64,000 nt of DNA from Escherichia phage ECCR664. Both the position numbers and the translations under genes were made by a program. The notes below the pieces were generated by a model. It was not told the DNA's origin and made no database searches. It worked only from the letters and a program-made list of their open reading frames with translations. This document shows positions 5,001 to 28,660 of this stretch, in pieces. The DNA is taken from sequence record OL631257.1, one strand, 5' to 3'. How positions within the stretch are numbered: the first letter of the stretch is position 1; every line of letters starts with the position of its first letter.

Positions 5001-5935
5001 TCAGATACAACACGTTCTACTGTATTTGAAGTTGGTGATGAAACGTCTAATCATTTTTATTCTCAACGTAATAAAGATGGGAATATAGCGTTTAGCATTA
5101 ATGGTACTGTGATGCCAATAAATGTTAACGCTTCGGGTTCATTGAATGCGAATGGCGTAGCAACATTTGGTAGTTCAGTTACTGCTAATGGCGAATTCAT
5201 CAGCAAGTCTGCAAATGCTTTCAGAGCAATAAACGGTGATTACGGATTCTTTATTCGTAATGATGCTGCTAATACCTATTTTATGCTCACTGCATCCGGT
5301 GATCAGACTGGCGGATTTAATGGATTACGTCCTTTGGCTATTAATAATGCATCTGGTCAAGTAACGATTGGTGAAAGCTTAATCATTGCCAAAGGTGCTA
5401 CTATAAATTCAGGTGGTTTAACTGTTAACTCGAGAATTCGTTCTCAGGGTTCTAAAACTGCTGATTTATACACTCGTGCTCCTACTGCTGATACAGTCGG
5501 GTTCTGGTCAGTTGACATTAACGATTCAGCCACTTATAACCAATTCCCGGGTTATTTTAAAATGGTTGAAAAAACTAATGAAGTGTCTGGACTTCCGTAC
5601 TTAGAACGTGGTGAAGAAGTTAAATCCCTGGTACTTTGACTCAGTTTGGTAATACGCTTGATTCTCTTTACCAAGATTGGATTACTTATCCAACGACACC
5701 GGAAGCGCGTACCACTCGCTGGACTCGCACATGGCAGAAAACTAAAAATTCTTGGTCAAGTTTTGTTCAGGTATTTGATGGTGGAAACCCTCCCCAACCT
5801 TCTGATATTGGTGCTTTACCTTCTGATAATGCAACAATTGGAAACTTGACGATAAGGGATTTCTTAAGGATTGGTAACGTCCGCATTATTCCAGACCCTG
5901 TGAATAAATCTGTTAAATTCGAGTGGATTGAATAA
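2066..5935 (+). CDS. 34: gp34 long tail fibre proximal subunit (interrupted by several frameshifts/stops)
   Basis: ORF fragments 2066-2356, 2428-2919, 2840-3607, 4692-5639, 5636-5935 all translate to gp34-like sequence; total span 3870 nt = 1289 codons as in T4; repeated motif TPKKL..RTATE..RRG..IAT visible after frame repair. Confidence 0.85.
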
Positions 5936-5943
5936 GAGGTATT

Positions 5944-7069
5944 ATGGAAAAATTTATGGCTAAGTTTGGACAAGGATACGTCCAAACGCCGTTTTTATCG
6001 GAAAGCAATTCAGTACGATTTAAATTAAGCATAGCGGGCTCTTGCCCGCTATCAACATCTCCTGCTTATATTAAGTTCCAGGATAATCCACTTGGGTCTC
6101 AGGTTTTTCCGTTGGATTAAACGTTCGTGTAATAAACCCTACAACAGGTACAGTAGTTGAATCTAAGACATATAATTTCTCTACTGAAAACGACACCACG
6201 TCAAGTGCATTTGTTACTTTCATGGACACATATGCTTCAAATTTTATATTTGCTCTTGTTACTAACGCTAAAACAAACTTTCCACCTGAAGTTCTTGCAT
6301 GGTTTAATAAAGCCGGAAGTTCTGTTATTCCATTAGCTCAACAAGTTTTAAATATAGTGGACATTTCTTATTCGGCATTTTATATTTCTGGTAAGAATGC
6401 TATAGCACTAGAACATATTAAGTATAGTAATAAGAAGACTTCAACCGACTATAGTACACCACTTGATGTTGTGTATGACACGATAGATGATATCGGTGCT
6501 ACGGGCTTCCCTAGTCGTACGTATGAATCGTCAGACACATTTTTATCTGCCGTTGGAGGTACTAATAATGAAATTAAAGGATGCCTACAACATCTCTTAT
6601 TACACCTCTCGCCGGGTATAAATTGAAGCCTGGAGATTTCCTTTATATGAAATTCCAACTAATGGCCGATGTCGATTTGTTAGCACAAGGGACGACACGA
6701 CTTTCTATTCGTTTCTTTAAATCTCCTTCTACTTCACCTATTTCATTTAAGGATACAAACTTTGATGGGGCTGCAGGTGAATGGAAGATATATGAAGACT
6801 ATATAGAAATTCCTGCTGGTGCTGACGGGTTCACGATTTATTGTTATCGTACAGCTCCAGTCGGGCAAGGTGGATTAAGAAACGTTATATTCACTGAAGT
6901 ATCATGTAATGGAAGCGTTTCAAAACCTGCCGAGTTTGGTGTAAATGGTATTCGTGTAAATTATGTTTCAGAATCTTTAAGTGCCCCAGACATAATGACA
7001 TTACCTACTCAATCTTCAACTGATACTGGTAAGGTGTTTGGGCAAGAATTTAAAGAAGCATCAGAATAA
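5944..7069 (+). CDS. 35: gp35 long tail fibre hinge protein (frameshifted)
   Basis: Starts MEKFMAKFGQGYVQTPFLSESNSVRFKLSIAGSCPLS; fragments 6222-6626 and 6581-7069 continue gp35-like sequence; ~374 codons. Confidence 0.8.
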
Positions 7070-7131: not shown

Positions 7132-7796
7132 ATGGCCGATTTAAAAGCTGGTAGTACAACTGGCGGTGCTGTCATATGGCATCAAGGTAATTTCCCTTTA
7201 ATGCCAGCAGGTGATGACGTCCTGTATAAAACGTTTAAACTCTATTCAGAATATAATAAGCCACAAGCTGCTGATAACGATTTCGTTTCTAAAGCTAATG
7301 GTGGTACGTATGCCGCTCGAGTAACATTTAATAATGGTGTGCAAGTACCTTATGCTATAAACAATACAAACCCATGTGGTGTTTATCCAGGTAACGGTGA
7401 TAATGCTACTTTTGCTGTAGCAAATATTGACATCGTTTCGTGGAATGGTATTGGTTTTAAATCATCGCAAGGTTCAGCAGGCCGAACTGTTGTAATTAAT
7501 GCACGTAATGGTGATATTAGCACAAAGGCGTTGTATCTGCTTCAGGACAAGTAAGAAGCGATATGACTGCTCCGGTTGCAGCAAATGATCTCACAAGAAA
7601 AGATTATGTTGATGGACGAATAAATATTGTTACGGATAACGCAAATTCCCGTGTATTGCGTAAAGGCGATACCATGACTGGTACTTTAACAGCACCAAAC
7701 TTTTTCTCACAGAATCCGGCGTCTGAGGCTAATCATGTTCCTCGTTTCGACCAGATTGTAATTAAAGATTCTGTTCAAGATTTCGGCTATTATTAA
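7132..7796 (+). CDS. 36: gp36 long tail fibre distal connector (one frameshift near 7550)
   Basis: [23 protein letters not shown]... and C-terminal ...[19 protein letters not shown]4 gp36-like; ~221 codons. Confidence 0.8.
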
Positions 7797-7804
7797 GAGG
7801 ACTT

Positions 7805-10800
7805 ATGGCTACATTAAAACAGATACAATTTAAAAGAAGCAAAGTAGCAGGAGTTAATCCTACTGCAGCACAATTAGCCGAAGGCGAATTAGCGATAAAC
7901 TTAAAAGATCGAACTCTTTTACTAAAGACGACCTCGGTAATATTATTAGCCTAGGCTTTGCTAAGGGCGGGGATATTAACGGTAATGTAACTCAAAATGG
8001 AGATTATTTACAGAACGGTACATATAATCTCAATGGAAATCAGTTTGTTTATGCAGGAAAATATATTGAATTTTTACCTAAAACTGCAGGCAATGGTGCT
8101 TGGGCAAATCAACATCTAAATAAAGCTCCTATCTTTACAGATTTGAGTTCAACTACTTCTGTTTCAGAATATCATCCACTGATTAAACAACGCTATAAAG
8201 ATGGAACTTTTTCTGTTGGTACGTTAGTAAACGAAGGAAGTTTTAAAATTCATTTTATGAATGAATCTGGTGATTCGAAATATTGGACGTTTCGCCGTGA
8301 CGGTGGATTTACTGTTGATGGTGGAGGTTTAGCAGTATCAGGAGGTAGTATAACTACATCTGGAAATATTGCAGCTCTCGGAAATATTACTTCGCCTCAG
8401 ATTAATACTAAAAATATTATTTTAGACACAAAAGCATTTGGACAATACGATTCGCAATCATTAGTTCAATATGTTTATCCTGGAACAGGCGAAGAAAATG
8501 GTGTAAACTATCTTCGTAAAGTTCGCGCTAAATCAGGCGGAACTATTTACCATGAAATCGCTTCAGCTCAAACTGGTAAGAATGATGAAATTTCTTGGTG
8601 GACCGGAAATACACTTACTACTAAATTAATGGGTCTTCGTAATGATGGCGCAATGGTATTACGTCGTTCACTTGCTATTGGCACAATTACTGCTGACGAA
8701 AATACTAACAACTATGGCTCTCCTACTCCAATGGGAGAAAGATATATTGCTTTGGGCGATGCTGCAACTGGTTTAAAATATATTAAGCAAGGCGTTTATG
8801 ATTTAGTAGGTAATTGGAATTCTGTTGCTTCTATTACTCCTGATAGTTTCCGTAGTACTCGTAAAGCATTATTTGGACGCTCAGAAGACCAAGGCGGAAC
8901 CTGGACAATGCCTGGAACCAACGCCGCGCTTTTATCGGTTCAAACCCAGGCTGATACAAACAATGCAGGTGATGGTCAAACCCACATTGGATATAATTCT
9001 GGCGGTAAATTTTCCCATTATTTCCGTGGTACAGGTCAGATGAATATCAATACCCAACAAGGTATGGAAATTAACCCGGGTATTTTGAAATTGGTAACCG
9101 GTGCAAATAATGTGATGTTTTATGCTGATGGCGGTATTACATCCACTAAGCAGCTTTCAATATATAATGGTGTATATTTAGCAGCTAATAATTCTACTGC
9201 CGGGCTAACATTCGCTCCAACTACTACAGTTGATGGCACTAAGCAAATTTTGTGGGAAGGTGGTACTCGTGCTGGGCAGAATAAAAGCTACGTAACTGTT
9301 AAAGCATGGGGTAATTCATTTAACGCATCCGGCGATCGTACTCGTGAAACAGTTTTTGAAGTAGCTGACGGGCAGGGATATTATTTTTATTCTCAGCGCA
9401 TAGCTCCAACCGGTTCAGAAACTGTGGGACCTGTTGTAACCCAGTTCAATGGACAAGTTAATGCTAGAGGAGCATTATCACCGATGGAAGTCTTAGAGTT
9501 AATGGATTAAGTGCATTATCCGGACAAGTTACTATGGATAACGGGCTTGTTTTATCCGGTGGTGGTTCTATTACCGGTCAAGTTAAAATCGGTAATACCG
9601 CAGATGCTTTCCGTATTTACAATGCTGAATATGGAGCTATTTTCCGTCGTTCTGAAGCGTCTTTGCATATTATACCTACACTTAAAGATGCAGGTGAAAG
9701 TGGTGGTATTTCTAACCTTCGCCCATTGAGTGTTTCTCTTAACAACGGTATGGTTCAAATGCGCCATTCTGTTACGTTAGGTGATGATGGTGCTGGCGGT
9801 AATATGGTGACCGTTGATAATGATAATAAACTTGTTGTTATAACTAGTCATAGTCGCATTTCTCCTAATTACCGTATGCAATTAGGACAATCGGCATATA
9901 TCGACGCTGAATGTACTGATACTGCACGACCTGCTGGAGCCGGTTCTTTTGCTTCACAAAATAATGAAAACGTTCGTGCTCCGTTCTATATGAATATTGA
10001 TAGAACAGATACAAGCACTTATGTTCCTATTGTGAAACAAAGATACGTTCAAAATAATAGTTGCTATTCTATTGGTACTTTAATTAATGGTGGTAACTTT
10101 AGAGTTCATTATCACGAAGGTGGTGACGGCGTTTCTACTGGTGCTGTTATAAAGGATCTTGGATGGGAATTTAATAAAAACGGTGATTTTTATTCTCCTG
10201 GTAAATTAGGCGCTGGTAATGTTCGTATTGGTACTGATGGTAATATCACTGGTGGTTCTGGTAATTTTGCTAACTTGAATACCACAATAAATAACCTTAA
10301 GACGGATATTGTCTCGAGTTACCCAATTGGTGCTCCGATTCCTTGGCCTACTGATACACCTCCTGAAGGCTATGCCATAATGGAAGGTCAAACATTTGAT
10401 GCTGGCTTGTATCCTAAGTTAGCTGCAGTGTATCCTTCCGGCACTCTGCCTGATATGCGTGGTCAAACTATCAAGGGTAAACCATCTGGGCGTGCTGTAT
10501 TAAGTACAGAAGCAGACGGTGTTAAGTCACATAGCCATAGTGCAAGTGCATCAAGCACGGATTTGGGTACTAAGACCACATCAAGCTTTGACTATGGTAC
10601 TAAGACGACAAGTAGTTTCGACTATGGTACTAAGACCAGTAATAATACTGGTGCTCATACGCATAGTTTGAGCGGTTCCACAAACACCGCCGGTGCGCAC
10701 AGCCACACAAGCGCTCTTTATGCGGGAAGTAACAACGCTCCTGGTATTGGTTCTATAAGAGGATCCGCCGGTGGTGGTAATACGCTTGGAACTTCTTCTT

Positions 10801-11021
10801 CTGGGGCACATTCGCACTCTATATCTGGTACTGCTGCAAGCGCAGGCGCTCACGCACATACTGTGGGTATTGGTGCTCATACGCATACTGTGGGTATTGG
10901 TGCTCATTCTCATACTGTTGCAATTGGTTCCCATGGACATACAATAACTGTAAATGCCACAGGAAATACAGAAAACACAGTTAAAAACGTTGCTTTTAAC
11001 TATATCGTTCGTTTAGCATAA
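7805..11021 (+). CDS. 37: gp37 long tail fibre distal subunit / receptor-binding tip (frameshifted)
   Basis: Starts [42 protein letters not shown]; C-terminal His-box array ([48 protein letters not shown]) and ending [11 protein letters not shown] as in T4-type gp37. Confidence 0.85.
10566..10640 (+). repeat. About 2.5 tandem copies of a 30-bp repeat inside gene 37 (encodes [10 protein letters not shown] repeats)
   Basis: ggtactaagaccacatcaagctttgactat / ggtactaagacgacaagtagtttcgactat / ggtactaagaccagt... read directly. Confidence 0.8.
10848..10928 (+). repeat. Three tandem 27-bp repeats inside gene 37 encoding His-box units (GAHxHTVxIG)
   Basis: gctcacgcacatactgtgggtattggt / gctcatacgcatactgtgggtattggt / gctcattctcatactgttgcaattggt. 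Confidence 0.8.
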
Positions 11022-11028
11022 GGAGAAG

Positions 11029-11046
11029 GGACTTCTGTCCCTTTTA
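11029..11046 (+). terminator. Hairpin gggac-ttct-gtccc followed by TTTT after gene 37
   Basis: 5-bp GC stem with 4-nt loop plus T-run directly after gene 37 stop at 11019-11021. Confidence 0.55.
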
Positions 11047-11050
11047 TAAT

Positions 11051-11586
11051 ATGAAACTCTATCACTATTATTTTGACACTAAAGAATTTTACAAAGAAGA
11101 AAATTATAAACCATTAAAAGGCGTAGGATTTCCGGCTCATTCAACACCAAAAACCTTTAGACCCTAAAGAAGGCTATGCTGTTATATTTGACGAACGCGA
11201 GCAAGAATGGGTATATGTTGAAGATCATCGTGGAAAAACAGTATGGACTTATGATAAGCAAAAATTGTTATTGACACTCCAGGTGCTCTTCAAAATGTTA
11301 CTACAGAAGAACCTGGTGAATTTGACATTTGGACCGACGACGGGTGGAAGGAAGATGAAGCATATAAACGCGTAGTTCAACGTGATAAGAAAATTCATGA
11401 ACTCTATAAATTATTCAGTGTTTTAAGTTCTCTTATTGACGCAGAGGTTGCTAATAGAGAAGAAAAACGAAAATTTAAAGAGCTCAAAAATTCTTTGCCC
11501 TTTTAGAAAAACACGAACATCTTGGCGGTGAATTCCTAAATTCCTGACCTTGAAAACAAATCTATTGTCAAAGCGATTATAAATAT
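11051..11586 (+). CDS. 38: gp38, T4-type tail fibre assembly chaperone (multiple frameshifts; no fragment >=60 aa)
   Basis: Translation starts MKLYHYYFDTKEFYKEENYKPLKGVGFPAHST, T4 gp38-like; later fragments ...EPGEFDIWTDDGWKEDEAYKRVVQRDKKIHELYK... in shifted frames. Confidence 0.6.
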
Positions 11587-11595
11587 CTTTAAGTA

Positions 11596-12262
11596 AGGAG
11601 GTATTATGGCAACACCAAAAGTATCATTTTCGTTTAGTGATATTCTATTTGGGTTGCTAGATCGTATTTTCAAAGATAACGCTACTGGAAAGGTTTTAAT
11701 GTCCCGAGTAGCGGTAATTATTCTTTGTTCCTAATGGCACTAATATGGTACAAAGGAAGTATTTTGCTGGATTATTATGTAAGAGCTAAGTATGATACTT
11801 ATACTGAAATAATCCAAAAGAACGAGCTTTACGTTTTGAATCTGCGGCTCTAGAACAACTGCAAATAGTTCATATCTCATCTGGTGCAGATTTTAGTGCT
11901 GTGTATTCTTTCAGACCTAAAAACTTAAATTATTTCGTCGACCTTATAGCTTATGAAGGCAAACTACCTAGCACAATTTCTGAAAAGTCCCTTGGCGGAT
12001 TCCCGGTGGATAAAACGGCCAATGAATATATAATTCATTTAAGTGGCCGTCATTTCTCATCTAAATCAGAATTTGCATTTTTGCCTACAAAATCTAAGAC
12101 TGCCGAACTTTCTTATATGTATAGTTGTCCATACTTTAATTTGGATAACATCTACGCTGGAACTGTGACGATGTATTGGTATAAGGGAGTAATATACTTG
12201 AGGAAGACCGCTTAGCGGCTATATGCAACCAAGCGGTCCGAATACTAGGAAGGGCTAAATAA
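11596..12262 (+). CDS. t: Holin t (frameshifted)
   Basis: RBS aaggagg then MATPKVSFSFSDILFGLLDRIFKDNATGKVLMSRVAVIIL; ORF 11901-12215 continues ...NLNYFVDLIAYEGKLPSTISEKSLGGFPVDKT...; T4 holin-like, ~218 codons. Confidence 0.65.
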
Positions 12263-28162: not shown

Positions 28163-28660
28163 TTAAGCTTTAAGAGGAGATACATAGCGAGTGATTTCAG
28201 ATTCTTTAACAACTCGGAAGTCACCTAAGAATACGATATTGTATAACTTTTCACCATCTTCAACCCATTGGTCACTAATGAAGCCGCACATAGTATCAGT
28301 TTTGCTTGGATAACCGTATTCGTCGATGTAATCAAATTCTTTATCGGTTATAAATTCAACGCCTTTGCAAAGGGTCCATTTGAACTGTGTAGTAGGCTCA
28401 ACGATATCGTTTGAAGCAAAGTGTGCAGGTGCAACTTCTTCGCTTGAAGCAAATTGGACTCGTATATGTTTTTCCAGGAATTTAGGACTTACGTAAGCAT
28501 ACTGGGCATCTTGTCCGCCAAAACTCGGAATGATTCGAACTTTAACTTCTTTAACACGTCCCATGCCGTTAGTACGAAGCCCTGCTACTTCAACCAGACG
28601 ACCTGCAGCTTTAGAACGAGAAGCAGGAGATACACGAAGGATTTCACCAATAGTAATCAT
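28163..28660 (-). CDS. Paralog family member B (~165 aa), unknown function
   Basis: Motif CGFISDQWVEDGEKLYNIVFLGDFRVV; start set at MITIGEILRV downstream of promoter 28688-28722. Confidence 0.5.
   Translation of the reverse strand: MITIGEILRVSPASRSKAAGRLVEVAGLRTNGMGRVKEVKVRIIPSFGGQDAQYAYVSPKFLEKHIRVQFASSEEVAPAHFASNDIVEPTTQFKWTLCKGVEFITDKEFDYIDEYGYPSKTDTMCGFISDQWVEDGEKLYNIVFLGDFRVVKESEITRYVSPLKA

Follow-up and report, generated by a model that had tools for sequence, protein, structure and literature searches.

Gene 37 of Escherichia phage ECCR664 (sequence record OL631257.1) encodes the distal subunit of the long tail fiber, and its 3' end carries two short tandem arrays in the part that codes for the fiber tip. 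This raises the question of whether the arrays form an unstable tract that alters host range or belong to the regular build of the fiber. We addressed it in a 64,000-nt stretch of the record, hereafter the window, to whose positions all coordinates refer (Table 1). Internal repeats and His boxes are textbook features of T4-type gp37 tips. We consider it very likely that the arrays are ordinary, old stem rungs of the T4-type gp37 receptor-binding needle and that the split reading frame of the gene is a homopolymer sequencing artifact.

Gene 37 and its reading frame

The gene lies in a tail-fiber cluster at 5.5-12.6 kb with the order g34 (3' end), g35, g36, g37, g38, t and asiA. The closest genome overall is that of ST0 (Mosigvirus JS09, NC_041990), with which the window is colinear over 5.5-12.6 kb; nucleotide identity is ~94% over g36-g38 and 96.6% for the backbone in the next 24 kb. 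No phage record in the collection searched matched the whole of g36-g38 above ~94%, and a look-up of the exact 495-aa product of the ORF at 9534-11021 in public assemblies gave no match. Directly downstream of gene 37, tblastn with T4 gp38 gave 51% identity at 11051-11593 (E = 4e-46), and residues 1-183 of ST0 gp38 ('tail fiber assembly') matched with E = 2e-82. A scan for terminators between g37 and g38 found none, and the window yielded no matches in searches for tRNA genes and Rfam families.

Table 1 Features of gene 37 and its surroundings in the window.
Feature	Position	Strand	Basis and remarks
Gene 37 (long tail fiber distal subunit)	7805-11021	+	Three frames as read; ATG at 7805; 1072 aa after two single-base restorations
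Frame break 1	7917-7920	+	Run of four T; ST0, PNJ-9, GiZh and T4 all have five (T5)
Frame break 2	9468-9469	+	GG in the window; GGG in ST0 and PNJ-9, GGA in GiZh
C-terminal ORF as read, 495 aa	9534-11021	+	Opens at an internal Met just 3' of frame break 2
Phage tail collar domain (knob, D10-type)	10329-10472	+	PF07484, restored residues 843-890, E = 8e-11, above curated cut-off; aligns to 2XGF
His box 1 (HSH), base of ascending limb	10530-10538	+	Motif reading
30-bp tandem array	10566-10640	+	Two full 10-aa units and a partial GTKTS; ascending-limb rungs; TRF, 2XGF alignment
His boxes 2 (HTH, 10656-10664) and 3 (HSH, 10698-10706), ascending 14-aa module	10656-10706	+	Motif reading, 2XGF alignment
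Head (tip) subdomain, 34 aa, presumed receptor-binding surface	10707-10808	+	2XGF alignment
His box 4 (HSH), start of descending limb, 14-aa module	10809-10817	+	Motif reading
27-bp tandem array	10848-10928	+	Three A-HxH-TVGIG units, descending-limb rungs; TRF, 2XGF alignment
His boxes 5-7	10851-10859, 10878-10886, 10905-10913	+	In the 27-bp array
His box 8 (HGH), degenerate fourth unit, bottom of descending limb	10932-10940	+	Motif reading
Gene 38, T4-type tail-fiber assembly chaperone, not a T2-type adhesin	11051-11596	+	tblastn

As read, gene 37 has no single uninterrupted frame. Three-frame translation and alignment to ST0, T4, PNJ-9 (PQ100635, Mosigvirus) and GiZh (NC_054903, Tequatrovirus) placed frame shifts at about 7916-7920 and about 9468-9470. 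Adding one T and one G yielded an uninterrupted 1072-aa gp37 without an internal stop. Across the whole gene, every other length difference from ST0 and GiZh is a multiple of three; these two 1-nt homopolymer deletions are the exceptions. A first-pass annotation of the same DNA had proposed a protein of ~1071 aa, longer than T4 gp37. The comparison with T4 stands for the restored protein (1072 versus 1026 aa), although no single ORF encodes it as read, and its length is inside the range of the relatives (GiZh, 1073 aa; ST0, 1090 aa; PNJ-9, 1078 aa as computed from the annotated coding-sequence length). The frame breaks had gone unmentioned in that annotation.

Losses of the same kind are spread over the neighboring genes. 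Compared with ST0, nearly all indels at 5.5-12.6 kb were homopolymer deletions of 1-2 nt, located in g35, g36, g38, t and the asiA region, and gene 38 alone was broken at five such sites (six missing bases). Over 12-36 kb we counted 40 deletions and five insertions relative to ST0; 33 of the 40 deletions fell in homopolymers, and of the 17 six-base runs in ST0, 12 are shorter in the window. The window has 0.17 homopolymer runs of at least six bases per kb, whereas relatives have 0.4-0.8, a depletion of about threefold.

These data bear on the idea that the disruption of gene 37 is genuine. The gene would then be a pseudogene, or it would be expressed by way of programmed frameshifting at the runs of T and G, and the ORF at 9534-11021 would give a separate product. 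Such a reading could appeal to the three frames as read and to the ATG at 9534 that opens the last piece, but we regard it as very improbable: both breaks are 1-nt homopolymer losses at runs that are intact in four relatives, similar losses interrupt g35, g36, g38 and t as well as many genes in another 24 kb, the depletion of long runs is window-wide, and no phage could survive frameshifts in nearly all of its essential genes. Because under-called homopolymers of this kind interrupt nearly all genes of the window, the frame breaks of gene 37 are a sequencing artifact of classic homopolymer under-calling and not the result of pseudogenization or programmed frameshifting. Given these systematic deletions, ORF-based reading of any gene in the window is unreliable.

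Architecture of the fiber tip

The T4 gp37 needle is an interwoven trimer with iron ions along its axis, each bound by six His residues from the three chains. In a phmmer search, the last 276 aa of gp37 matched chain A of PDB entry 2XGF, the T4 gp37 tip (Bartual et al. 2010), with an E value of 1.9e-96, query residues 17-276 aligning to residues 2-242 of 242. This homology settles membership of the T4-type gp37 needle family. It upholds two proposals of the first-pass annotation, namely that the region forms the receptor-binding C-terminus of a T4-type gp37 and, with homology running across the whole 2XGF chain, that the 27-bp units encode His-x-His (HxH) boxes of a T4-type metal-binding needle. 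Pfam analysis of restored gp37 found the Collar and Phage_fiber families. The T4 tip has the same collar, stem, head and stem architecture as the window. In T4, too, both limbs bear HxH boxes, the head has 34 aa and gene 37 is followed by a gene for a T4-type gp38 chaperone. In the T4 D11 needle, stem residues 882-931 run up and 960-1009 run down, with the tip or head at 932-959 (PMC6957217; PMC9603124), and seven iron atoms are placed along the needle (PMC6957217).

We next to this alignment set the tandem repeats found at the DNA level. TRF reported a 30-bp unit at 10566-10638 (2.4 copies, 83% matches, score 104) and, at 10848-10918, a 27-bp unit (2.3-2.6 copies, 88-94% matches, scores 107-110), and a separate repeat search recovered the same two families. 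When the codons of 9534-11021 were shuffled 200 times, the top-scoring tandem repeat with a period of at least 9 averaged 11 and never exceeded 74, compared with 110 in the real sequence; none of the 200 shuffles reached a TRF score of 100. Together, these three analyses confirm the 30-bp (~2.5 copies) and 27-bp repeats that had been reported for the region. Gly, Ser, Thr and His are abundant in the tip, and the repeats could in theory reflect chance similarity or low-complexity composition devoid of structural meaning. This explanation is refuted by the codon shuffles and by the alignment of the units to ordered stem residues of the solved 2XGF structure, and we assign it a negligible probability.

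The window encodes three ascending and five descending HxH boxes around its 34-aa head (3 + 5, eight in all), compared with 3 + 4 (seven) in T4. Only two differences in stem length separate it from 2XGF: a 10-aa ascending insertion, which is the second copy of the peptide encoded by the 30-bp array, and a 9-aa descending insertion (an extra HTHTVGIGA). We propose that the gp37 C-terminus would lead from the collar domain through the ascending stem limb to the head and back along the descending limb to the collar. The DNA arrays would then be the coding imprint of stem periodicity, with 10-aa GTKxxSSFDY rungs ascending and 9-aa HxH-TVGIG rungs descending. By homology to 2XGF, the HxH pairs of three chains may hold metal ions on the fiber axis. 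With one more rung per limb than T4, the needle would have eight predicted metal sites versus seven, that is, a stem one rung longer than that of T4 and bearing a putative eighth metal layer. The repeats, the homology, the copy numbers in relatives, the mosaicism and the error signature are direct observations, whereas metal binding, the trimeric fold, the pairing of rungs and the role of the head in receptor recognition are inferred.

Age of the arrays and mosaicism of gene 37

In PNJ-9 and GiZh, the 30-bp array is identical to that of the window at 75 of 75 nt. Their 27-bp arrays have the same copy number and are identical at 75/81 nt (PNJ-9) and 70/81 nt (GiZh), and their head regions are 99-100% identical to the head of the window. 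ST0 equals the window in its numbers of 10-aa units, 9-aa units and HxH boxes, but the identity of its arrays falls to 58/75 and 62/81 nt and its head is different and longer (52 versus 34 aa). In eleven phage records, a single piece of essentially unchanged length covered 80% or more of the tip query; in most other matches listed for this query, the head alone differs. No copy-number variation of the arrays was seen among the close relatives examined (PNJ-9, GiZh and ST0), and the copy-number polymorphism expected of a slippage-prone repeat did not appear in these three phages or in the single-piece tip matches. The first-pass annotation had presented the repeats as substrates for slippage and recombination and had suggested a copy-number comparison with relatives, naming identical number and sequence as the outcome that would speak against it. 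The numbers proved to be the same and the 30-bp array identical in PNJ-9 and GiZh, and the repeats are thus not a distinguishing or unstable feature.

The repeat copies themselves also carry information on age. Both full 30-bp units encode identical 10-aa peptides, while their DNA is identical at 24/30 nt (80%); the six differences are synonymous throughout and include TCA and AGT serine codons. The 27-bp units are identical to one another at 21-24 of 27 nt (78-89%). The same state of 2.5 GTK units and 3 + 1 descending units is found in tail-fiber proteins from E. coli genome assemblies, for example P0007, the N-terminal parts of which are unrelated to that of gp37; judging by their Pfam families and the names of their sources, these proteins are probably side tail fibers (Stf) of lambdoid prophages. 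Because the copies have diverged synonymously and the arrangement is common to Mosigvirus, Tequatrovirus and the tail-fiber proteins of E. coli assemblies, the duplication is old and does not stem from recent slippage. Judged from its sequence, the repeat duplication in the gp37 tip is fixed, without an active slippage tract.

The contrary reading is that the arrays constitute an active hypervariable tract, in which slippage or unequal recombination often alters copy number and hence host range. Its precedent is Tetart et al. 1996, who reportedly described host-range duplications in T4 gp37, and the title of that paper points in this direction. Further in its favor, the 27-bp array contains a perfect 24-nt direct repeat (10857-10880 and 10884-10907) with copies 27 nt apart, and occasional unequal recombination at this array is in principle physically possible. 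Against it stand the single copy number shared by PNJ-9, GiZh and ST0, the 11 records with tips of conserved length and the synonymous divergence of the units. A recent duplication of the Tetart 1996 type would be recognized by near-identical copies that are missing from relatives, a pattern that the gp37 arrays do not show. We therefore judge an active hypervariable tract to be unlikely and retain the interpretation of the arrays as old stem rungs. Among T4-like gp37 proteins, 7-9 HxH repeats have been described, with a predicted 2XGF-like structure (Korf et al. 2019, PMC6563267). The tip repeats and His boxes are thus already known and ordinary, and the tip allele is present in published phage genomes. 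With a number already known to vary (7-9), the tip repeats matter little.

Sliding-window identity divided gene 37 into segments of different affinity. Positions 7805-8160 are PNJ-9-like, and 8570-10535 are ~100% ST0-like, with 37-60% identity to PNJ-9 and 77-97% to GiZh over the same interval. From 10536 through the head, the gene is 99-100% PNJ-9/GiZh-like, a stretch that spans 10536-10880, and the head region is only 32-43% identical to ST0. The junction between the ST0-like and the PNJ-9/GiZh-like segments maps to 10535-10555, at the first His box. At the nucleotide level, 11 phage records from Mosigvirus and Tequatrovirus share the head cassette with at least 94% identity, two of these records being RefSeq/GenBank duplicates of phages already counted. 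At the level of these alignments, gp37 of the window is a new mosaic of known segments. It very likely arose through recombination at the first His box that joined a GiZh/PNJ-9-type head cassette to an ST0-like shaft. According to the summary in PMC3157838 of Tetart 1998, adhesin specificity is swapped by recombination at conserved motifs, and the mosaicism of g37 fits this picture.

Host specificity would accordingly be sought between the arrays, mainly in the head cassette. The view that the repeats determine host range is not supported: the receptor-contacting residues of T4 gp37 are located in the tip or head at 932-959, between the arrays and outside the repeats (PMC6957217). The T4 head also has 34 aa, but its sequence is unrelated to that of the window, and the residues described as critical in T4 (I933, N937, G938 and others; PMC6957217) are not recognizably conserved. 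Because the head is of the GiZh/PNJ-9 type, unlike that of T4, OmpC/LPS specificity should not be assumed, and the receptor specificity of the fiber is to be deduced from the GiZh/PNJ-9-type head cassette. A literature search for phage GiZh found no paper and so provided no receptor link for this head type.

Coupled lengths of the two stem limbs

We compared stem lengths across 117 complete tips, drawn from 115 of the 120 search matches listed (of roughly 2300 homologues) together with the window, T4, ST0, GiZh and PNJ-9. For each tip, we measured how far apart the first and last HxH boxes lie on the ascending limb and likewise on the descending limb. Expressed as (ascending, descending), 90 of the 117 tips fell into the T4 class (46,32) and 20 into the class of the window (56,41), with one near-variant of the latter at (55,41). 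PNJ-9, GiZh, ST0 and many tail-fiber proteins of enterobacterial genomes belong to the same length class as the window. Rarer classes were (42,27) with three tips and (66,50) and (70,55) with one tip each. Ascending and descending lengths had a Spearman coefficient of 0.98 over the 117 tips, a descriptive value because the tips are cluster representatives and not phylogenetically independent. One seemingly uncoupled tip, P0026 at (32,32), was a parsing artifact attributable to a degenerate third box (GAHTYV).

The several stem length classes in nature could be taken as a further sign of active hypervariability at the arrays, but both limbs change together. Coupled lengths are consistent with an up-and-back stem kept in register. 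Because the limbs always change length together and a hairpin-like stem would lose register, slippage on a single limb is probably deleterious, which again speaks against a hypervariable tract.

Two module pairings were observed, a 10-aa ascending with a 9-aa descending module and a 14-aa ascending with a 14-aa descending module. Four distinct length transitions were each mirrored on both limbs within one residue, and the alleles in the sampled tips carry 6 to 10 HxH boxes. We tentatively suggest, as a possibility that we hold to be rather less than even, that the stem might be a combinatorial set of paired modules (10-aa GTK with 9-aa HxH; 14-aa GxHxH-SG with 14-aa), with length classes quantized at 6, 7, 8, 9 or 10 predicted metal layers. 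If this pairing rule is true, it would explain the absence of single-array slippage variants; if it is structurally true and was previously unstated, it would offer a rule for designing longer or shorter T4-type fiber tips. The coupled change of the limbs is in any case a useful constraint for engineering fiber-tip length. The module compositions represented were [3,0] in P0105, [2,1] in T4, [3,1] in the window, [4,1] in P0019 and [3,2] in P0022.

Homopolymer deletions and broken tail-fibre genes

Relative to the closest genome overall, Escherichia phage ST0 (Mosigvirus JS09, NC_041990), homopolymer runs of the whole window carry systematic 1–2-nt deletions, with example sites listed in the table. 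Between 12 and 36 kb, 40 deletions compared with 5 insertions were counted in the window relative to ST0, and 12 of the 17 six-base runs were shortened. Within the long-tail-fibre cluster, one such deletion (A4 to A3 at 7526) splits gene 36, encoding the distal hinge connector, into two open reading frames (ORFs); gene 35 is likewise broken at 6110 and 6578, and gene 34 near its end, at 5626. Fragmentation of this kind affects nearly all genes of the window. Together, the deletions and the pervasive fragmentation point to error-prone long-read or flow-chemistry sequencing as their source, and annotation of the window from ORFs is unreliable.

Features of the tail-fibre region and example homopolymer deletions
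Feature	Position	Description
Gene 36	7132-7796	Two ORFs, 140 aa + 77 aa
Gene 37 segment 1	7805-8160	PNJ-9-like
Gene 37 segment 2	8570-10535	ST0-like, about 100%
Gene 37 segment 3	10536-11021	PNJ-9/GiZh-like
g37-g38 junction	11012-11056	g37 stop TAA 11019-11021; g38 ATG 11051
Example deletion sites	5626, 6110, 6578, 7526, 7916-7920, 9468-9470, 11153, 11264	vs ST0
Further example deletion sites	11490, 11536, 11544, 11726, 11819, 12184, 12403	vs ST0

Mosaic structure of gene 37

Gene 37 (7805-11021) is a mosaic of three parts, related to ST0 or to the Escherichia phages PNJ-9 (PQ100635) and GiZh (NC_054903). Its distal junction lies at 10535-10555, at the first His box at the base of the ascending limb of the needle stem.

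In the tandem array encoding His-x-His boxes 5–7, the second 27-bp unit (10875-10901) shows five clustered differences from PNJ-9, at 10877-10892. It matches the first unit of the window at 24 of 27 positions, compared with only 20–23 of 27 between the paralogous units of relatives. This pattern may reflect a small gene-conversion patch between adjacent units.

The g37-g38 junction and RNA gene scans

Upstream of g38, the gene for the T4-type assembly chaperone, lies a Shine-Dalgarno sequence, GGAG, that overlaps the stop codon of g37. A hairpin with a GGGAC/GTCCC core (11028-11041) stands between this sequence and the g38 ATG. The hairpin is stable (minimum free energy -15.1 kcal/mol, z -3.3) and is retained in T4, GiZh, ST0 and PNJ-9, the differences being confined to GU/GC changes. 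This arrangement resembles the hairpin-bridged 'split' ribosome-binding site known from gene 38 of T4. Scans of the entire 64-kb window (1-64000) returned no tRNA genes and zero Rfam matches at gathering thresholds.

Larger length differences from ST0 were also observed: the alignment is interrupted at 28400-28413, where the window has 12 nt and ST0 about 45 nt, and one 21-nt insertion in the window falls somewhere within 12000-36000.
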